32,000 nt of DNA from Candidatus Saccharimonadota bacterium (GCA_027925225.1 AP027131.1:450001-482000), one strand, 5' to 3'. Positions 272-30,654 are shown, numbered from the stretch's first letter. Program-made: numbers and translations. The notes: generated from the letters alone by a model not told the origin.

Positions 272-304
272 TTTAAATTAAATAAAGAAATAATATAATA
301 AAAA

Positions 305-333
305 AAAGTCTTAATTTTAAAGACTTTTTTTTA
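305..333 (+). terminator. Rho-independent terminator after pyk
   Basis: Stem AAAGTCTT (305-312) pairs with AAGACTTT (320-327), followed by a T-run to 333. Confidence 0.7.
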
Positions 334-432
334 TCATATTATTTCTTATAAATCTTAATTTACTATAATGAATATATAACTTGTTAAAAATTGATAAGAA
401 AATTTAGATGAATAATAAATAATCACGGGGAA

Positions 433-1155
433 ATGATAATGAATTTTATTGATTGATTAAAAAAAATAGAAATAAAAGCAATTAATAAAAAATATAAAGA
501 AGGTTTAAAGAATTATGATTTTGATTCATTAATTAAAGATTATATTTCTAAAGATTTAGAAATAGAAAAAAATAAATTAGAAGAAACTATTAAAAAAATA
601 AATTTGAATAAAGAAATAGAAGATAAAAATATTTTAATTTTGAAAGACTGATTAATTGATTTATATGACATTTTATGTTTTTTTAGTGAAGAAAATATGA
701 AATTTAACAAAGTTTGAAAATATAAAATTCTTTATTTTATTTATGGAGGATTTATTTATTATCAAGAATATTTAAAAAAATATTTTGAAAAAAGGGGATT
801 TAAAAAAAGAAAAAATTTTAATTTTTTTATAAATGAAGAAAAAATAAAATGATTTGCTTTTGAAAAAGGCCCAATAACTAACCATTATAAATTTTTAGGA
901 AAGGATGAATCAATAAATATTAATATTGAAAAAAATGATATTGAAACAAAAGAAATTTTGGAAGATTTTTATTTAATTTTAAAAAAAAATTCTCTTGAAA
1001 CCCTTATAGAAGAAAGCCACAAAACAGATCCATGAGAAAAAGCTTTTAAAAAAAATGAAAAAGAAAGACCAAAATGGCAAGAAATTAAAGGAGAAGAAAT
1101 AATAAGTTATTTCAAAGAAAATATTCCTTTTTATTTAGAAAAACCAGATGAATAA
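433..1155 (+). CDS. Panacea (DUF4065, SocA/GepA-like) domain protein, putative PanA-type antitoxin, 240 aa
   Basis: The frame is continuous with 5 in-frame TGA codons read as Trp. Motifs KVWKYKILYFIYGGFIYYQ, KWFAFEKGPITNHYKFL and ESHKTDPWEKAF resemble the DUF4065 core (KLqKLLYf..g, W.yGPV...y, tHk..pW). The alternative start at ATG 439 has better spacing to GGGGA. A paralog lies at 25132-25788. Confidence 0.6.
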
Positions 1156-1570
1156 AATAAAAAAAATCAATCAAAAAAAAATAATTATTTGTTATATATT
1201 ATTTTTAGTATTATTTTTAGTATTTAGTTTTATAAATGGTAGTGAGTGGTTAGTATTTTGATGTTCGGGTGTTTTGCCAATTCCAATTTTTATTTATACC
1301 TATATAATTTCTAAAGAACAAAAACTTATACTAAAAAATATTCTTTTTAAAATTGATAAAGAATCAAAAAAAGATTTTAATGAAAAAATAAAACCAGCTA
1401 ATAAATTACCTAAAAAAAACACTAAAATTAATTTTATTAATAAAATTAAAATAAAAGAAAAGAAATCTGAAAAAATATATAAAATGAAATTGCAAAAACC
1501 TAAAGATAAAAATAATGTAAAAGAAATAATTAATTTAGAAAAAAATGAATTTAATCAAAAAAAAATATAA
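1148..1570 (+). CDS. Small two-TM membrane protein with a Lys-rich tail, 140 aa; candidate toxin partner of the Panacea gene
   Basis: Its ATG at 1148 overlaps the upstream stop (ATGAATAA). The N-terminus is basic, with two hydrophobic helices (IIICYILFLVLFLVFSF and VLPIPIFIYTYII), then ISKEQ and a Lys-rich tail. It is paralogous to 24762-25127, which shares FIYT...ISKEQ. Confidence 0.55.
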
Positions 1571-1581
1571 ATATTTGTATT

Positions 1582-2472
1582 TTAATTAATAATTTTATTT
1601 AATTTTCTCCCATAAAAAGCAAATGCTAATCCAGCAATAACTTGTGCTAATAAATAAAATGGAATTCAAATAGTATACATTATATCTCCATTAACTCCAG
1701 TTACACTGGACATAACATCATAAGCAACAGCAGAACCAATAATTGTTGCTGAATTTATTGAATTATTTGCAGTTCTTGCTCCTAAAACAACTGCTATTCA
1801 AACTCCACATCCTACAACAATTGGTCTTCAAAAATGTGTAACATTTTTAAATAAAAAAACTCCGCCTATATAAATAGTTGTATATAAAATTTCTAAAAAA
1901 AATGAAAATGTAACAAATAGACTTCCAAATTCCATATTTTTATAACTCTGTGTATAATACAATGCATTATTATAATCTATTTCTCCTCAGTTATATCTTG
2001 TTCAAGTAGGATAAGCAGAATTTAAGGTTGATGAATAATTTGCAGGATTATCATTTCCATTTCACAATCCCATTGAATCAGAAATTAAATAGGCAATAAA
2101 CCCTGCAGAAATTCCCCCTAAAATTTGAAATATAATTTTTAGTGATCCAGACTTTAAATTATCTTTTCCATAACCAATTCCAGCAATAGTAACAGAGGAA
2201 TTTAAATTAGCAGAAACAAACCTAAAAAAATAAGATGTAAAAATAATAACAAGAGCAACTCAAAATGCTTTCATAAATATTAAACTTCATATGTCTGATC
2301 AAACATTTCAAAAATCTTGGTTATTTTGATGTGCAACAGGTGTTGTAAAAGCCATTGCACTTGGAAGAATAATTAAAAGTACACGTATTAAAGTTCCTAA
2401 AAATTCTGAAATTAGAATAGCTCAAATATTTTTATTTCAACTTTTTTTGTGTGTTTTTTTGATTTTATTCAT
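1582..2472 (-). CDS. MIP/aquaporin-family channel paralog with both NPA boxes degenerate (NSS and NSA-T), 296 aa
   Basis: I checked the full frame codon by codon under code 4 and found no TAA or TAG. It is collinear with and similar to 2683-3603. The first box reads NLNSSVTIA (2194-2202) and the second reads SINSATIIG (1744-1755). Confidence 0.7.
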
Positions 2473-2682: not shown

Positions 2683-3603
2683 TTAACTTATCATTGGCGC
2701 TAATTTATTATTAACTATTTTCTTATTAATTTGTTTTCTTCCATAAAATGCAAAACTAAGTCCAGCAATAATTTGAGCTATTAAATAGAATGGAATTCAA
2801 ATTGTGTACATTACATCTCCGTTAACTCCAGTTACACTAGACATAACATCATGAGCAATAGCAGGTCCCATCATTCTTGCAGGGTTAATTGAAATGTTTG
2901 CACTTCTTATTCCTAAAGTAACTGCTAATCAAACTCCAACACCTACAACAATTGGTCTTCAAAAATGTGTAACATTTTTGAATAAAAATACTCCCCCTAT
3001 TAAAATACCAGTATATAAAATTTCTAGAAAAAATGAAACTGTTACAAATAGTCCGCCTAAATCCATTTCATCATAACTTTTTGTAGCATATAAAGCAGTA
3101 TTATAATCAATATCTCCTCAATTATAACTTGTTCAAACCGGATAAACTGCATCTAATGATGTCTGATAACTTGCTGCATTATCAGCTGAATTTCATAATC
3201 CCATTGAATCAGAAATTAGATAAGCAAAAAAACCAGCGGAAATTCCACCTAAAATTTGAGCCCCAATTTTAAGAGACCCAATTTTTAAAGTATCATTTCC
3301 ATAACCAATTTCAGCAATAGTAACAGCCGGATTTAAGTTAACAGAAATAAATCTTAAAAGATAAACTATAAAAACAACAAATAATGCTGCTCAAAGAGCT
3401 TTCATAAACATTAAGCTTCATATATTTGATCAAGCAATTCAAAAATCTTGATTATTTTGATGTGCGGCAGGCGTTGTAAAAGCCATTGTACTTGGAAGAA
3501 TAATTCAAAGAGTAAGAGCAATAGTACCTAAAAATTCTGAAACCAAAATGGCTGAAATACTTTTATTTCAACCTTTTTTTTCTACTTTTTTAATTTCTTT
3601 CAT
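2683..3603 (-). CDS. MIP-family channel (glycerol facilitator/aquaporin type) with canonical NPA boxes, 306 aa
   Basis: I checked the full frame under code 4. The motifs are SEFLGT near the N-terminus, NLNPAVTIA (NPA at 3325-3333) and SINPARMMGPA (NPAR at 2875-2886). Confidence 0.8.
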
Positions 3604-4689: not shown

Positions 4690-6222
4690 TTATTTTTTAA
4701 CAACAACTGAATCTTCAGTCATTTCACTTGGTTTTTTTATCTCTAAAATATCTAACATAGTTGGAGCTAAATTACTTAATTTAGCTATTACTTCTTTTTT
4801 ATATTCTTTTTTAAAATCAAAATCTTTTGAAACAAGATAAAATCTAACTTTATTTGTGGTATGAGCAGTATTTGGACTACCATCATAATTTAACATCTTT
4901 TCACAATTACCATGATCAGCAATTACAATCATAATTCCATCTAATTCTTTAACAATTAAATCATATAATCTTTCAAGCATTTGATCAACTGTTTCTACTG
5001 CTCTTATACCAGCTGATAAAACTCCAGTATGGCCCACCATATCAGGATTTGCATAATTAATAATTGAAACCTTGTTTTTTGGGATTTCATTTAATAATTT
5101 ATCAGTAAGTTCAATTGCTGACATTTCTGGTTTTAGATCATAAGTCGCTACTTTTGGAGAAGGAACAAGAATTTTTATTTCATTTTTTCTATCAAGTAAT
5201 TTTCCACCATCCATAAAAAATGTAACATGAGGATATTTTTCTGTTTCTGCTGCTCTAATTTGACTTATATTATTTTTTTCTAAAACATCACCTAAAGTAT
5301 TTTTTATTTCTTTTGTTTCAAATAGAACATTCGAATTTATGTTTACCATTTCTTTTAGAGAAACTAAAAAAATATTTTTTAGTTTATTTTTATTTTCATA
5401 ATCATATCCTGAAGATTTATCGTTTAAGAACATATATGAAATTTCACGTATTCTATCAGACCTAAAATTAAAAATTAAAATTACATCTCCATCTTTAATT
5501 TGTCCTTTAATTTCCTCATTAAATCCAGGAACAATAAATTCATCAGTTACATTATTTTGATAACTTTCTTCAATAAATTTTACCGGATCAGAAAAGCTTT
5601 TTCCTTTTCTATTAACAATTACATCATAAGCTAACTGAATTCTTTCTCATCTTCTATCTCTATCCATTGCATAATATCTACCAGAAATAGAAGCAACATT
5701 AATTTTTTCAACATTTATTGCTTTTTTAATAAGATCTAATGCAGATTTTGGATCTGTATCTCTCCCATCAGTAAAAGCATGTAAAAAGAAATTAATATTT
5801 TCTTCATCAAGTTTATTCTTTAAATCATAAAAATGATCTAAACTTGAATGAACTCCACCCTCAGAAAAAAGTCCTAATAAATGTAAATTAGAATTATTTT
5901 TTCTTAAATGCTTAATTGCATTTTTAAAAACTTCATTTTTAAAGAATTTTTTATCATTTAGTTTTTCTTTAATTTCTAAAATTGATTGTTTAACAATTCT
6001 TCCTGAACCAATATTTAAATGACCAACTTCAGAATTACCCATTTGCCCTTTTGGTAATCCAACTCATTCTTCACTAGCATTCATTAATATTGAAGGATAA
6101 TTTTTTTTAAGAAAATTTAAGAATGGGGTGTTTGCTAATTTTAATGCATTACCATAAATTTCTTTTCTTTCACCAGCACCATCCATTATTATTAAGGATA
6201 AATGTTTTAAATCTTTATTCAT
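4690..6222 (-). CDS. gpmI: 2,3-bisphosphoglycerate-independent phosphoglycerate mutase, 510 aa
   Basis: Track fragments 4690-5433 and 5647-6042 join in one frame through TGA codons. The N-terminus reads LIIMDGAGER...LPKGQMGNSEVGHLNIGSGRIV, and ADHGN lies in the C-terminal half. Confidence 0.9.
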
Positions 6223-16019: not shown

Positions 16020-16451
16020 ATGAGAATTAAATTTATTTTTAAAAAAGAACAGAATTATATAAAAGAAAGAGTTTTTAAATTAGAACAAAAAAATGAAACA
16101 CTTAAAAATATTGTCATAAATGATGTTAAAAAGGATGTTTCGGATCTAAAAACGGATGTGTCGGTTTTAAAAAAAGATGTTTCAGAACTAAAAACAGATG
16201 TGTCAGTCTTAAAAAAAGATGTTTCAGAACTAAAAACAGATGTATCGGTCTTAAAGAAAGATGTTTCAGAACTAAAAACAGATGTATCGGTCTTAAAGAA
16301 AGATGTTTCAGAACTAAAAACAGATGTATCGGTCTTAAAAAAAGATGTTTCAATTTTAAAGAATGATATGTCAGAATTAAAAAATGATTTTAAAATTTTA
16401 ATTTCAAGATTTGATAATTTTGAAAAAAATTTCTATAATAAAGAAATATAG
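16020..16451 (+). CDS. Heptad-repeat coiled-coil protein, 143 aa; longest member of a four-copy family in this window
   Basis: The ORF is intact, with an AAGGG Shine-Dalgarno sequence upstream. Twelve consecutive heptads of the DVSxLKx type sit between a conserved head (IKFIFKKEQN...NIVINDVKK) and tail (DFKILISRFDNFEKNFY). Confidence 0.75.
   Translation: MRIKFIFKKEQNYIKERVFKLEQKNETLKNIVINDVKKDVSDLKTDVSVLKKDVSELKTDVSVLKKDVSELKTDVSVLKKDVSELKTDVSVLKKDVSELKTDVSVLKKDVSILKNDMSELKNDFKILISRFDNFEKNFYNKEI
16131..16384 (+). repeat. In-frame 42-bp tandem repeat (two 21-bp heptad subunits), about 6 units
   Basis: Units start at 16131, 16173, 16215, 16257, 16299 and 16341 (the last is degenerate). The central units are near-identical (aaagatgtttcagaactaaaaacagatgtatcggtcttaaag). 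Confidence 0.9.
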
Positions 16452-20244: not shown

Positions 20245-20423
20245 CAGATTTATTTATTTTTTGTTTATTACATCTCACAAAGTCATTATATTAGTATCTT
20301 TTTTTGAAGAAAAAAATATTTAAAAAGAATTTTAAATATTTAATTTTAATAAAATAAATATAATAAATAATCAATGTTTATGATATTAATTTAATAATAA
20401 TATATTAGAAATGTGTGGTAAAT

Positions 20424-21344
20424 ATGAAATTAAATGTTACTGAAAATTTAAATACAAACAAAATTAAAGAATCAAAAAAGTGATCTAATTTTTTTAAAAA
20501 AAAATATCTTGGATTAATATTTATATTTGTATTAATATTAACGTTAATTTTATCTCTTTCTTTAACACTCACAAAAAGAAAAGATGAAGCAAATAATTTT
20601 TATACATATGGTGAAAATTGTCCATATGTAATAGATATAGAATCAGAGCAATATGTTGGATATGGAAGAATTGGAATGGATGTAGCTTTTCAACTTGAAC
20701 CAGGTTATGTGCCATCTGATTATGTATATGTTTTTGAAACTTCAGAAAATTTAGAAGAAGAAACTTTAGTAGCTGAAGTGCCAATAAAATATGATTATGA
20801 TGAAGATGTAAATTCTCCTTATCATCAAAAATATCCTTATGGTGTTTATAGTGCTTACCAATATATTCCTTATAACTTTAGCAATCATATAAAAACATAT
20901 TCTATTCAAGTACAGTTAAAAGATAAAAATGAAAATAATGTTGGAATTGTAGAACTCGATACTTTTTCACTTTATGATAATCGAAAACCTAATGGTTTTA
21001 CAATAAGTCCATTTGTTAATATTCTTAATTATCAAAATATAAATTGAATGTATGGAAATTGCTATTTACATTATGAATTATTTTATCCTGAAGGAAGTGG
21101 AAAAATTAAAAATGTTTTACTTGTAGATGAATATGGAAACATTGTAAGCAGCAGCAAAGCAATAACTGGTAAAAATTTTGAATATGATTATAGAGGTATT
21201 TTATATCTTCCTGCAAATTACACATCCAAACCAATTACATATCATATAGATGTAGTTTATTCGCATAATGTTCTTCCATATGGAGATTTTACAAAAACTT
21301 TTAGAACAGAAATTTATGACAACATTACAGTTTATCCTTCTTAA
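20424..21344 (+). CDS. Hypothetical N-terminally anchored surface protein, Tyr/Asn/Asp-rich, 306 aa
   Basis: ATG 20424 joins track ORFs 20676-21047 and 21048-21344 through TGA codons. The TM segment is YLGLIFIFVLILTLILSLSL. I checked the frame and recognised no family. Confidence 0.65.
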
Positions 21345-21448: not shown

Positions 21449-21583
21449 ATGTGAATTAAATTAGTATTTAAAAAAGAACAAAATCAAGTAAATGAAAAAA
21501 ATTTAGAATTAAATCAAAAATATGAAATATTTGAAAACATTGTTAAAAAATATATAAAAGAATTAAAAATAATTTTAAATTAA
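21449..21583 (+). CDS. Truncated or degenerate member of the coiled-coil family, 44 aa
   Basis: The sequence is MWIKLVFKKEQNQVNEKNLELNQKYEIFENIVKKYIKELKIILN. The head is identical to 24210-24425, but it has a 12-nt deletion and an early stop where the Abi-like gene abuts. Confidence 0.4.
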
Positions 21584-22627
21584 ATTATTAAAAAAAGAAT
21601 TAATGTTTTTTTCTTTATAAGGATAAATTGAAATTAATTCTTCTTTTAAATTTGAAATTAATTTTTGTAATTCTGGTCTTAAACCCAGCGCAGATGATGA
21701 ACCATTAACAAATGAAATCTTATATAAAGAATTAATACTTTCCTTTAAATTAAAATTATCAATTGATTCAATTAATTTTAAATAACCTTTAAAAATAATT
21801 GTTTTTCTATGAGAAATTTTATTTCTTAAAAGTTTAATGTTTTCCATTTCTTTTAGAAACTTATCTTTAAAAATATGAAGAACATCTTCATCATTTTTAT
21901 TTAAACCAAAAATAGATAAAAAATCAATATTTATTTTATTAGAGTTCGAATAAAATATTTTCATTAATTCTTCAAAATCTTTATCTTTAATTTTATCTTT
22001 AATAATATTGATATAATCTTGAAAAACCATTTCTTCAAAAATTATTTCAAAACACTCATTACTTCTTAAATCTTTACCTGCATCTTTAAAAGACTTTTTA
22101 AAATTAATAGAATATTCATCTTTTTTTCTTAAAAATATGGGTTCGTAATTAATGCTTTCTTCAGTTAAATTTTTATCTAATTTTCTTAAAAAAATTTTCA
22201 AAATATTTCTTAAAGAAGATTCAAATGTGTCAATAAAATCATTTATTTTAATTCTTATAGAAAATTGAAAATCATAAAATTTTCTTAATACTATAAAATC
22301 TATTTTTTCCTTTTTTCTGTCTATATTTAATACATCATTAAATATATATTTCATAAAATCATAACTAATAGTATTAGCTCAAGTATAAAAATCAAAAATA
22401 TATTTTATTTTTATGTCTAAAGAAATAGGTTCTTCTTCAAATTCTTCAATTTTTTGAATGCTTAATAAGTCCCAAACTTTAAGGTAATACTTATTATTTT
22501 TAATAACTTTTGTTCACTCTAAAAGTCTTTTTTTCATTTCAATTTCATTTTTTTTAATTAATGAAACAATATTTAATAATATTGTTTCATTAGTTTGTCT
22601 ATCATAAAAATTATTATTATCATTCAT
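21575..22627 (-). CDS. Abi_2 (AbiD/AbiF-like) abortive-infection family protein, 350 aa
   Basis: Track ORF 21575-22354 extends through TGA codons to ATG 22627, with a GGTGA Shine-Dalgarno sequence upstream. The pattern is Abi_2-like: an NNKYYLKVW segment near the N-terminus, ESSLRNIL, FEIIFEEMVFQDYINII and LLRNKISHR. Its size is the same as lactococcal AbiD1/AbiF. Confidence 0.45.
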
Positions 22628-23183: not shown

Positions 23184-24105
23184 TATAAAATTAAATGTTA
23201 CTGAAAATTTAAATACAAACAAAATTAAAGAATCAAAAAAATGATCTAATTTTTTTAAAAAAAATATCTTGGGTTAATATTTATATTTGTATTAATATTA
23301 ATGTTAATTTTATCTCTTTCTTTAACACTCACAAAAAGAAATGATGAAACAAATGATTTTTATGCATATGGTGAAAATTGTCCATATGTAATAGATGTAG
23401 AATCAGATCAATATGTTGGATATGGAAGAATTGGAATGGCTGTAGCTTTTCAACTTGAGCCTGGTTATGTTCCATCTGATTATGTGTATGTTTTTGAAAC
23501 TTCAGAAAATTTATAAGAAGAAACTTTAGTAGCTGAAATTCCAATAAAATATGATTATGATGATGACGTAAATTCTCCTTATCATCAAAAATACCCTTAT
23601 GGTGTTTATCGGAGCTTATCAATATATTCCTTATAACTTTAGCAATCATATAAAAACATATTCTTTTTAAGCGCAGCTAAAAGATAAAAATGAAAATAAT
23701 GTTGGGATTGTCGAACTTGATAATTTTTCACTTTATGATAATCGTAAGCCTAATGATTTTACAATAAATTCATTTACTAAAATTCTTAATTATCAAAATA
23801 TAAATTAAATGTATGGAAATTGCTATTTACATTATGAATTATTTTATCCTGAAGGAAATGGAAAAATTAAAAATGTTTTACTTGTAGATGAATATGGAAA
23901 CATTATAAGTAGCAGCAAGGCAATAACTGGTAAAAATTTTGAATATGATTATAGAGGTATTTTATATCTTCCTGCAAATTACACATCCAAACCAATTACA
24001 TATCATATAGATGTAGTTTATTCGCATAATGTTCTTCCATATGGAGATTTTACAAAAACTTTTAGAACAGAAATTTATGACAACATTACAGTTTATCCTT
24101 CTTAA
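23184..24105 (+). pseudogene. Inactivated duplicate of 20424-21344; the last 98 codons (23809-24105) remain an intact ATG-initiated ORF
   Basis: Relative to copy 1, the start ATG has become ATA (23184). The A9 run is A8, giving a frameshift. GAA has become TAA at 23514-23516, and there is a further frameshift near 23610. A TAA lies at 23668-23670, and the TGA (Trp) has become TAA at 23806-23808. Confidence 0.8.
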
Positions 24106-24425: not shown

Positions 24426-24481
24426 ATTTTTAAAAAAATATAAAATTAAATCCTTTTATTCTTAATAAAATGAGGGATAAC

Positions 24482-24730
24482 ATGTGAATTAAATTGATTT
24501 TTAAGAAAAAAGAAAATCAAATAAAGAAAGAAATTTTAGAATTAAAGCAAAAATATGAAAGAATTGAAAATATTGTTATAAATGATGTTAAAAAAGATAT
24601 ATCAGAATTAAAAATAGATGTAAAAATTCTAAAAACAGACATAACAGAATTAAAAACTGATTTTAAAATTTTAATTTCTAGATTTGATAATTTTGAAAAA
24701 AATTTTTATAAAAATAAGACCTTAAATTAA
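24482..24730 (+). CDS. Coiled-coil family protein, intermediate form (3 heptads), 82 aa
   Basis: ATG TGA at 24482 gives MWIKLIFKKKENQ...INDVKKDISELKIDVKILKTDITELKTDFKILISRFDNFEKNFY. A GAGGGA Shine-Dalgarno sequence lies upstream. The track ORF at 24494 is the same frame. Confidence 0.7.
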
Positions 24731-24761: not shown

Positions 24762-25127
24762 TTATAAATCATTTTTATAAAGGTTTTTATTTAATCTTTC
24801 TTCAAGTTTATCCTGAGATTCTTTTAAAATATTTGCTTCGTTTTCTTTGGAAGAAAAAAATTTTGTTAAATTTATTATTTCTTTTTTATATTCTTCAATT
24901 TTATTTTCTAATTTATTATTTTGCTCTTTACTAATAATTTTTTGTTTTGTGTATATAAAAATAGCAATTAAAAAAATTAATAAACTTAAAATCCCTGAAA
25001 TAAACATTAATCTATCATCTTTTAAATCAGAAGCAACAATAAGTCAAACATCCACAATAAAAAAAGAAATAATTAAGAAAATATAGAAATAATTAAAAAG
25101 ACATTCCTTAAATTTCTTCTTTTTCAT
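24762..25127 (-). CDS. Small two-TM membrane protein with a charged coiled-coil tail, 121 aa; paralog of 1148-1570
   Basis: Track ORF 24762-25007 extends through one TGA to ATG 25127. The sequence runs MKKKKFKECLFNYFYIFLIISFFIV...ISGILSLLIFLIAIFIYTKQKIISKEQ. It starts 4 nt after the upstream Panacea-like stop. Confidence 0.55.
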
Positions 25128-25131
25128 AAAA

Positions 25132-25788
25132 TTAATCAATCTTTCTCATATAAAAAGGTGGATTATTTTTAAAATAATTAATTATTTCTTCTTTTTTTAT
25201 TTCATTTCATTTTATATTTGAATTATAAACACCTTTTCAAGGCTCCGTTTCATGACTTTTATTAATAAGAAATTCTACACTAAAAAATTCCTTAATTGTT
25301 AAATAAAAATCTTCTAAACTTTCCTTTATTTTATTATTCATTTTTTCAAAATCAATTTCTATTAATTTGTCTTCTTCTAAAAATTTATAATGATTAGTTA
25401 CAGGCCCGTTTTTAAAAGCAAATCATTTAACTTCTTTTTCATTAATGAAAAAAGTAAAATCGTCTTTTTCTAAACCTTTTTTTATAAAATATTCTTTCAT
25501 ATAAATAAAACCAGCATAAAGGAAATAAAGTATTTTATATTTTCAAATTTTATTGTATTTAATATTATTTTCACTAAAAAAATTTTCAATTTCAATCAAA
25601 TTTTCTAATCAATCATTTTCCAAAGAATTAAGATCTAAATTTTTAGAGGCAAAATCTTTTAATTCCTTAAAAGTTAAAAACAAACATTTTTCTTTAAGAG
25701 ATTTAGAAATATTATTATCATTATTTAATTTATTTATTTCAATTTCTTTAAGTCAAAAAGTAAATTCATTGTTTTCCATTCTTTTCAT
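25132..25788 (-). CDS. Panacea (DUF4065)-like protein, paralog of 433-1155, 218 aa
   Basis: I verified the frame as open under code 4, with an AGGAAAG Shine-Dalgarno sequence upstream. NKIWKYKILYFLYAGFIYMKEY, KWFAFKNGPVTNHYKFL and KSHETEPWKG parallel the motifs of the first copy. Confidence 0.6.
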
Positions 25789-25847
25789 TTCTTTCCTATT
25801 TACATTATAATGTTTTAAAAATATTATTTTTCTTAATTTTTTGATAT

Positions 25848-25880
25848 AAAAAAAGACATTATATTGATGTCTTTTTTTTA
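25848..25880 (-). terminator. Rho-independent terminator downstream of 23S rRNA
   Basis: AAAAGACAT (25851-25859) pairs with ATGTCTTTT (25867-25875), flanked by A and T runs. Confidence 0.65.
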
Positions 25881-25937: not shown

Positions 25938-28881
<2,944 letters not shown>

Positions 28882-29964: not shown

Positions 29965-30324
29965 ATGGAATGATACTTTATTCTTTTAATACTTATTGCT
30001 TATGGGGTCGGAGAATTTATAATAGGTTTCTTTTTTAACTATAAAATTTTTATGATTTCAAAAGAAAATTTTAGAGTTGCTGCCTTCATGGGGGCAATTT
30101 CTACAATACTTTATGCAATTCTTATTTCTAGTTCTGCTTTTATTGCCGGAACTTCGCTTGATGGAGCTTATTGATTTGTTGTTGTCTCTGCTTTTACAAT
30201 GGGAATTGGTAATTTCTTTGCTGCAATTCTTGTTCCTGTAATTTCTAAAAAACTTGGACATTTTAAAAATGAAGAAGAAAATAAAATAATAGTAGAAGAA
30301 TTAAAAAGTGAGGAAAATCATTAA
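29965..30324 (+). CDS. Small three-TM membrane protein, possibly DUF5698 (UPF0316 N-terminal domain)-like, 119 aa
   Basis: I checked the frame under code 4. NYKIFMISKENFRVAAFMGAISTILYAIL resembles the TxRxIxxxKGxRxxAA...Y core of UPF0316 proteins. This is a weak assignment. Confidence 0.45.
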
Positions 30325-30654
30325 ATGGAAACATTTTTAATTATTCTTTTTATTATTTTTATGTTTTTATTTAATTTATTAGTACAGTGAATGTTTAGCT
30401 ATAAAGTTTACCTAATGGGAAAGAGAAAATTTTTAAGAGCAGCAGTCTATGGAGGTTTTTCTACAATGTTTGGTGCACTTTTTATTGGAATTATTTCCTT
30501 ACAATTTTTAATAATGGATGAAATTTGAGCTCCTATAGTTGAAATTTTTGCTTTAACAATAAGCACATATATTGGAACAATAATTACACCAAAGGTAGAT
30601 AAATATTTAATTAAAAGAAAAAAAGATAAAGAAAAATATAAAATTAAAAAATAA
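30325..30654 (+). CDS. Small three-TM membrane protein, paralog of 29965-30324, 109 aa
   Basis: It begins immediately after the upstream TAA in the same frame (CAT TAA ATG). SYKVYLMGKRKFLRAAVYGGFSTMFGALF parallels the upstream gene. Confidence 0.45.

Follow-up and report, generated by a model that had tools for sequence, protein, structure and literature searches.

Organization of the locus

The window analyzed here is a stretch of 32,000 nucleotides (AP027131.1, positions 450001 to 482000) and belongs to Candidatus Hepatoplasma vulgare, the product of the gene denoted A2 below being 100% identical to HPAVJP_4040. H. vulgare is a symbiont of the woodlouse hepatopancreas with a genome of 662 kb and 597 genes. 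The window harbors two gene pairs, each consisting of a gene for a large Panacea-type protein (A) and a gene for a small membrane protein (B); they are termed pair 1 (A1/B1) and pair 2 (A2/B2). Pair 2, situated behind the 23S rRNA gene (rrl), is the subject of this study, and it most likely adds a new member to the PanA/PanT class, one whose membrane partner carries two transmembrane (TM) helices and has not been described before. The GC content of the window is 25%, and TGA is read as tryptophan (genetic code 4). As a consequence, a listing of open reading frames (ORFs) with translation table 11 splits both genes of pair 2, and translation with table 4 restores A2 and B2. The genes and their parts are as follows:

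25788..25132, minus strand: A2 (HPAVJP_4040), 218 amino acids (aa), predicted cytosolic; table 4 translation with six TGA codons read as tryptophan
Within A2: helical N-terminal extension of ~75 aa, then a diverged Panacea core (SocA/PanA, PF13274-type) at about residues 74-216
25128..25131, minus strand: spacer of 4 nucleotides (nt) between A2 and B2, TAA-TTTT-ATG
25127..24762, minus strand: B2 (HPAVJP_4030), membrane protein of 121 aa, putative membrane toxin
439..1155, plus strand: A1 (HPAVJP_3790), paralog of A2; 238 aa from the ATG at 439, 240 aa from the in-frame ATG at 433
1148..1570, plus strand: B1 (HPAVJP_3800), 140 aa, two TM helices and a Lys-rich tail

The distance of 4 nt between the genes of pair 2 had been given correctly by an earlier reading made from the sequence alone (the sequence-only reading), and such tight spacing points to a single operon for A2 and B2. 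In pair 1, A1 and B1 share 8 nt where the first gene ends and the second begins. The GenBank model of B2 uses an internal GTG start and comprises 97 aa, so that neither the basic N-terminus nor the first TM helix (TM1) is included. Comparison with the layout of the family favors the ATG at 25127, 4 nt past the A2 stop codon, as the start of B2. At the base composition of the window, stop-free runs of these lengths are expected by chance with P ~1.5e-4 for 121 codons and P ~1e-7 for 218 codons.

The large protein is a strongly diverged Panacea-domain protein

A1 and A2 are unambiguously paralogous in sequence comparison (BLASTP, 48% identity, E = 2e-57), and every one of the motifs that the sequence-only reading had quoted as common to them is found in both proteins. 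The DNA of pairs 1 and 2 can be aligned only in the part coding for the Panacea core (71%, 510 nt) and in AT-rich hairpins. Since the similarity is confined to the coding part of the core, the duplication must be old; common mobile-element borders of the two pairs were considered and rejected on the same alignment.

The Panacea-like nature of the large protein, also put forward by the sequence-only reading, is not seen by Pfam directly, but it is established by a profile search, a Pfam scan of the matches, and a profile-profile comparison. Direct scans of A1, A2, B1, and B2 against Pfam, NCBIfam, and PADLOC yielded no significant match. A1 weakly resembles the NCBIfam model SocA_antitoxin (E = 0.011), scoring 15.4 bits where the cut-off is 190; A2 does not match it. 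Even among 31 close family members, only four match PF13274 at E <= 0.01, and a word-indexed search of 5.8 billion proteins returned only a handful of relatives. When 1.84 billion representative proteins were searched exhaustively with a hidden Markov model built from five family members, 61 proteins matched; they fall into two groups. The first comprises ~30 close relatives of A with 160-260 aa. The second consists of 32 weaker matches of ~100-200 aa (E 2.8e-9 to 1e-3), aligned to the C-terminal two-thirds of the profile; 30 of these 32 proteins are independently matched by PF13274 (SocA_Panacea), with a best E of 5.7e-21. A weak match to the PF13274 protein P0006 in the first family profile search points in the same direction, as does the SocA_antitoxin match of A1. 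A comparison of the 31-member close family with the 32 weaker proteins by hhalign resulted in a probability of 99.7% (E = 1.5e-25) over A2 residues 74-216.

The motifs of the Panacea set and of the A family align one-to-one: a K-x-K-x-LYF helix, W-x-A-F/W-x-x-GPV...Y (also given as W/F-A-F/W-x-x-GPV...Y), and ST..L[IV]..SH.T.PW...I....I..YF. Positions that are invariant or nearly so in the family, and to which the Panacea consensus aligns, are K83-Y84-K85-x-L87-Y88-F89, G128-P129, Y134, and S178-H179-x-T181-x-P183-W184. Residues Y56 and H120 are functionally important in the PanA of B. choladocola (PMC10440598), and their equivalents in A2 are Y134 and H179. Upstream of the core, the first 22 residues of the N-terminal extension are conserved (F9, W12, I16, I18, N22), and the extension has no known relative. 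On the level of sequence profiles, A is thus shown to belong to the Panacea-domain proteins, as a strongly diverged representative in which ~75 aa of additional helical sequence precede the core at the N-terminus. The AlphaFold2 model of A2 reached a pLDDT of 83 and a pTM of 0.84; a search of PDB sequences with the family profile gave nothing at E <= 10.

The small protein shares a membrane architecture rather than a sequence

B1 and B2 each contain two hydrophobic segments. B2 consists of a basic N-terminus, TM1, a short acidic loop, a second TM helix (TM2), and a Lys/Glu-rich helical C-terminal tail. Both features that had been described as common to the two small proteins, the two-TM layout and the junction FIYT...ISKEQ, are present; the junction reads IFIYTYIISKEQ in B1 and IFIYTKQKIISKEQ in B2 (pattern IFIYT..(K)IISKEQ). 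A single BLASTP comparison of B2 with B1 gave E = 1e-5 over 61 columns. In a control in which the membrane part and the tail were shuffled separately, the score corresponded to z = 4.4 and was reached in 1 of 300 shuffles. This similarity is marginal; it is suggestive of common descent at the sequence level, not conclusive. The paralogy that the sequence-only reading had claimed for the pair as a whole is supported, clearly for A and marginally for B.

Across the family, the B proteins have no invariant columns, most pairs score no better than shuffles, and the architecture is constant. One member, P0065, was modeled as a helical hairpin whose second helix extends for ~50 further residues. Weak matches of B2 to SLATT_4, MAG1210_fam, CARF_2M, AI-2E, and other families do not recur in other B proteins and were dismissed as compositional.

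Copy number, distribution, and genomic neighborhoods

Twelve loci, all of them from Hepatoplasmataceae-like mollicutes, were compared: pairs 1 and 2 of the window, four loci from the organism of ERR14127475 (a sister Hepatoplasma species), two from SRR24015491, two from GCA_040777225.1, and those of Mycoplasma sp. Bg1 and H. crinochetorum Ps. A PanAT-type arrangement, with a Panacea gene and a small candidate toxin gene, is found in 11 of the 12, where a small ORF on the same strand directly follows A, at A identities down to ~30%. The downstream ORFs encode 99-221 aa and either overlap A or start within 10 nt of it. Their products begin with a short basic segment, continue with one or two hydrophobic helices near the N-terminus, and end in a long helical tail rich in Lys, Glu, and Asn. 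The named sources (H. vulgare, H. crinochetorum, a 'Mycoplasmataceae bacterium' metagenome-assembled genome (MAG), and Mycoplasma sp. Bg1) are Hepatoplasmataceae or related arthropod-associated mollicutes. A contig search with a five-member alignment found nothing, probably since both patterns contain tryptophan, encoded here by TGA; with a DNA pattern that was composed by hand and accepts TGR, Mycoplasma sp. Bg1 was the only match.

Two copies in a reduced genome had been called unusual, which turned out to be an understatement: H. vulgare encodes three A paralogs (HPAVJP_3790, HPAVJP_4040, and HPAVJP_4410) in the same 662 kb, and the genes of both pairs and the third paralog are all annotated as encoding hypothetical proteins. 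The sister species harbors at least four A copies (P0002, P0003, P0007, and P0017).

The insertion sites differ. Copies are located behind pyk, behind rrl, between infA and rpmJ, and before rpmF, and also behind genes for a MatE protein, an ABC transporter, and an AP endonuclease. The pair between infA and rpmJ (P0007 and a two-TM ORF; L006 4001-5390) is situated within a ribosomal protein operon of the sister species. Other copies have neighbors related to defense. Genes for GmrSD, Fic, and a PIF1-type helicase flank copies in L002 and L003, the arrangements observed being a site behind GmrSD near a Fic gene and a site upstream of genes for a PIF1-type helicase and GmrSD. At another site, ~1.7 kb that include a hypothetical gene separate the copy from a DpnII-type methylase/restriction gene upstream of it. 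Abi_2-like genes come directly after the A/B pair in two loci (L003 4154-5011; L011 4160-6207), which stem from different samples. The two Abi_2-like genes are homologous to each other (BLASTP E = 1e-39), and their resemblance to Pfam Abi_2 (E = 1e-4) stays below the cut-off.

Several observations concern the evolutionary state of the pairs. The ratio of nonsynonymous to synonymous substitution rates (dN/dS) relative to the sister-species orthologs is ~0.5 for both A2 and B2. H. crinochetorum Ps carries an orphan A (P0018, UniProt A0A0G7ZNK1; L010 3001-3909), and no B-type ORF fits in the 182 nt ahead of rpmF. Two B genes of the ERR14127475 organism start with an ATG followed by an A7 tract, the membrane ORF being in the -1 frame (L001 ~2900-3249; L006 ~4740-5130). 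These tracts could reflect an assembly error, a frameshift that inactivates the gene, or an on/off switch prone to slippage. In the window, codons 4-7 of B1 contain an in-frame A8 tract. Taken together, the multiple copies, the varied sites, the dN/dS of ~0.5, the orphan A, the frameshifted B genes, and the defense neighbors fit an accessory toxin-antitoxin or defense module better than a housekeeping pair.

Position of pair 2 downstream of rrl

The features around rrl, and the corresponding ones upstream of pair 1, are:

28881..25939, minus strand: 23S rRNA (Rfam)
25879..25848, minus strand: rrl hairpin, 12-bp AU-rich stem and 7-nt loop, AAAAAAAAGACAU-CAAUAUA-AUGUCUUUUUUU; the U-run is the 3' stem arm
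25850..25823, minus strand: weaker alternative promoter TTTATA-16-AATAAT, from a promoter scan
25809..25804, minus strand: TATAAT, -10-like hexamer 15 nt upstream of the A2 ATG; candidate promoter of pair 2
25797..25791, minus strand: Shine-Dalgarno-like AGGAAAG, ending 2 nt before the A2 ATG (25788)
300..332, plus strand: pyk hairpin, AU-rich with a T-run; the pyk stop codon is at 269-271
364-369, plus strand: TATAAT of pair 1, after the pyk hairpin; the layout matches that upstream of pair 2

The single 23S rRNA gene of H. vulgare stands alone in the window: no 16S rRNA gene lies within 3.1 kb upstream, and no 5S rRNA or tRNA gene was detected between the 23S 3' end and A2 or adjoining the 23S gene in the window. 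This isolation implies that the rRNA genes are unlinked in the H. vulgare genome, for which three rRNA genes in total are reported (PMC10928387). Pair 2 is on the same strand as rrl, and A2 starts 150 nt past the 23S 3' end and 59 nt past the hairpin, so that the position of about 60 nt behind the 23S terminator stated earlier is exact; the TATAAT that had been expected near 25805 on the reverse strand was located as well. The hairpin (fold z = -2.5) looks like an intrinsic terminator and is a candidate for this function. A consensus terminator scan reported none; it requires three G-C pairs, and the rrl hairpin is too GC-poor for it. No good -35 element was found for the TATAAT at 25809..25804. 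The gene preceding pair 1 was identified as pyk by its PK_C domain (E = 5e-8).

The rRNA regions of the H. vulgare MAG were manually patched (PMC10928387). The sister-species assembly is independent, and there, too, the 23S 3' end (L001 positions 1-327) lies upstream of the orthologous pair. In this assembly, an ORF of 575 aa (L001 445-2172), absent from the window and without a precomputed Pfam domain or a PADLOC match, is located between the 23S gene and the pair.

It had been suggested that read-through from the rRNA promoter would enter the module. If functional, such read-through would drive or tune the pair and couple it to the growth rate. The strand and the distance of 150 nt would allow it, the AU-rich hairpin may leak, the orthologous locus likewise follows the 23S gene, and another paralog resides inside the infA-rpmJ ribosomal protein operon. 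However, a hairpin, a TATAAT, and a Shine-Dalgarno-like site stand between rrl and A2, and the same hairpin-TATAAT layout recurs behind pyk; the 575-aa ORF separates the 23S gene from the pair in the sister species, other family members lie behind unrelated genes, and most other copies are away from translation genes. The functional weight placed on rRNA read-through is therefore unsupported. The comparison of loci argues against a special role for it, and we consider a function of the position behind rrl rather unlikely. The modules give the impression of small operons of their own, each located right behind the terminator of whichever gene precedes it. An enrichment of insertions next to highly expressed genes was also considered; with 3-4 of 12 loci it was judged indistinguishable from chance in a genome of ~600 genes.

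Relation to known systems and proposed mode of action

PanA antitoxins pair with dozens of unrelated toxins and neutralize many of them in direct complexes, among these small membrane proteins that depolarize E. coli (Kurata et al., 2022, PMC8832971). Where PanAs consist of several domains, the toxin is neutralized by an accessory one (Ernits et al., 2023, PMC10440598), and a sensor function has been suggested for Panacea itself (PMC10440598, PMC11782079). The pairs described here resemble PanA/PanT systems in being tightly coupled two-gene modules, in the Panacea-type core of the large protein with its LYF helix and its GPV...Y and SH..PW motifs, in a small partner with predicted TM helices, as in validated PanTs from E. 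coli, Bartonella, and Helicobacter (PMC8832971), and in the presence of several copies, some of them beside defense genes. They differ from these systems in the divergence of the A core beyond detection by Pfam, in the conserved N-terminal extension, and in the mollicute host; the main text of PMC8832971 makes no mention of mollicutes.

We consider it fairly probable that the pair is a lineage-specific toxin-antitoxin or abortive-infection module of the PanA/PanT type, type II-like and with a toxin that acts on the membrane. In such a module, A2 would be the cytosolic antitoxin, with the diverged Panacea domain in its C-terminal two-thirds after the conserved helical N-terminal extension. B2 would form a small inner-membrane hairpin with both ends in the cytoplasm, as predicted by the positive-inside rule, and its long charged cytoplasmic helix would continue TM2. 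A single transcript may serve for the translation of both proteins, with its probable start at a promoter belonging to the pair, right behind the rrl hairpin. A2 would hold B2 inactive by binding its cytoplasmic juxtamembrane region or tail. By analogy to multidomain PanAs, neutralization could be accomplished by the conserved N-terminal helix of A2, leaving the Panacea core to sense a trigger, e.g. a phage or mobile element. Release of B2 by such a trigger, for instance infection, or by loss of A2 would then allow free B2 to oligomerize in the single membrane of the wall-less cell and to depolarize or permeabilize it.

A wider picture would combine several of these elements: a lineage-specific, expanded Panacea clade in which the N-terminal helix F-x-x-W-L-K-x-I-E-I-x-x-L-N and not the core neutralizes, a two-helix hairpin with a C-terminal coiled coil as a new toxin class that acts on the sole membrane of a cell lacking a wall, poly-A tracts encoding the basic B N-terminus as slippage-prone on/off switches of the toxin, and modules that settle after the terminators of highly expressed genes (rrl, pyk, infA) and are transcribed at a low level by read-through. 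In this combination, the picture is quite improbable.

Alternative explanations

The identification as a toxin-antitoxin or abortive-infection module has to be weighed against several observations that speak against it. The toxicity of B is purely inferential. The antitoxin gene comes first in all loci, whereas 78% of PanAT modules have the toxin first (PMC10440598), and the layout of B, with N-terminal TM helices and a C-terminal charged coiled coil, is the reverse of that of validated membrane PanTs (PMC8832971). B relatives were not detectable outside these loci, nor did Pfam and PADLOC give a consistent match for the B proteins. PF13274 does not match A1 or A2 even at E <= 1, and the membership of A in Panacea relies on transitive, profile-level homology. 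Finally, several copies reside in or beside housekeeping operons (rrl, pyk, infA-rpmJ, rpmF), which also fits a non-toxic lineage-specific function. According to this explanation, which appears possible though unlikely, A and B would form a membrane complex with a housekeeping or host-interaction role in Hepatoplasmataceae, B serving as anchor or regulator and A as its cytosolic partner. It accounts for the core-gene neighbors on the same strand (in addition to those just named, a tRNA synthetase and the AP endonuclease), for a B that resembles no known toxin family, and for a family apparently limited to one symbiont lineage. Several diverged copies per tiny genome, variable sites, an orphan A, frameshifted B genes, and rapid evolution with a dN/dS of ~0.5 are, however, typical of accessory or selfish modules and not of housekeeping genes, and in PMC8832971 and PMC10440598 the Panacea domain is characterized only as an antitoxin or sensor. 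Part of the same evidence would suit a decaying remnant, i.e. a once functional toxin-antitoxin module that the Hepatoplasmataceae ancestor acquired and that now drifts without function in H. vulgare: the dN/dS, the sister-species B ortholog that is out of frame at its A7 tract, the orphan A in H. crinochetorum, and B sequences diverged nearly past recognition. We regard such decay as distinctly improbable, as all four ORFs of the window are intact (stop-free runs of this kind have P ~1e-4 to 1e-7), the core motifs of A are invariant throughout the family, and the tight or overlapping A-B junctions have been kept.

The name of the domain family brings in a further system. SocA of the type VI system SocA/SocB from Caulobacter is the founding member of Pfam SocA_Panacea, and A could by this relationship act as a proteolytic adaptor that passes B to a protease instead of binding and inhibiting it. 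The sole direct similarity is the sub-threshold A1 match mentioned above (E = 0.011), far under the curated cut-off, with A2 unmatched and a two-TM membrane protein as partner in place of a soluble SocB-like protein. Mollicutes generally lack ClpXP, which makes a ClpXP-adaptor mechanism unlikely in this host. Validated PanAs, moreover, form complexes directly with their toxins (PMC8832971). The proteolytic mechanism is accordingly rated as very improbable, and the pairs are not assigned to SocAB. The layout of B resembles that of the SLATT effector domains (SMODS/SLOG-associated), with two N-terminal TM helices followed by a helical cytoplasmic region and a predicted role as membrane-perturbing suicide effectors. 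Only B2 matches them, and weakly (SLATT_4 E = 0.006, SLATT_5 E = 0.41; 16.7 bits against a cut-off of 27); none of the eight other B proteins does, the weak matches scatter over unrelated membrane families, and a nucleotide-signaling partner is not present. The B proteins are thus not assigned to SLATT.

Other genes in and around the window

Two paralogous ORFs for coiled-coil proteins are located at 16020-16451 (+) and 24470-24730 (+). The longer one contains tandem DVSELKTDVSVLKK repeats and has LPP/leucine-zipper-type Pfam matches; the shorter one is convergent with the 3' end of B2, the stop codons being 31 nt apart. A membrane-anchored protein of 309 aa is encoded at 20415-21344 (+), and ~2 kb away, at ~23281-24105, lies a second, apparently fragmented copy that retains a C-terminal ORF of 98 aa (23809-24105). 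A homolog of this protein adjoins the pair in L001 (3372-4361). Two tandem duplications are present as well. One, of genes for MIP (aquaporin/GlpF-like) proteins at 1582-2472 (-) and 2683-3603 (-), lies immediately behind pair 1. The other, upstream of the 23S gene, comprises ORFs for small multi-pass membrane proteins without a Pfam match at 29965-30324 (+) and 30325-30654 (+). An ORF of 350 aa at 21575-22627 (-), ~2.1 kb downstream of B2, was considered as Abi_2-like for its LLRNKISH/LRNKISH motif and rejected, Pfam, PADLOC, and BLASTP against the Abi_2-like neighbors being negative.

Implications

The publication on the H. vulgare genome lists only restriction-modification and CRISPR-Cas9 as defenses; these genes are not mentioned in it, no antitoxin is named, and toxins are said to be seemingly absent from the family (PMC10928387). 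What results here is a useful gain in annotation and a toxin candidate that can be tested, rather than a system of a new kind. It extends the reach of Panacea to a clade that is invisible to Pfam, and it illustrates that in genomes using genetic code 4 such modules are hidden from tools working with table 11. With its two membrane helices, the small B protein offers a simple candidate for a PanT family that would be new and act on the membrane. For the organism, three Panacea-type modules among 597 genes would mean that this heavily reduced symbiont likely possesses a toxin-antitoxin or abortive-infection layer.

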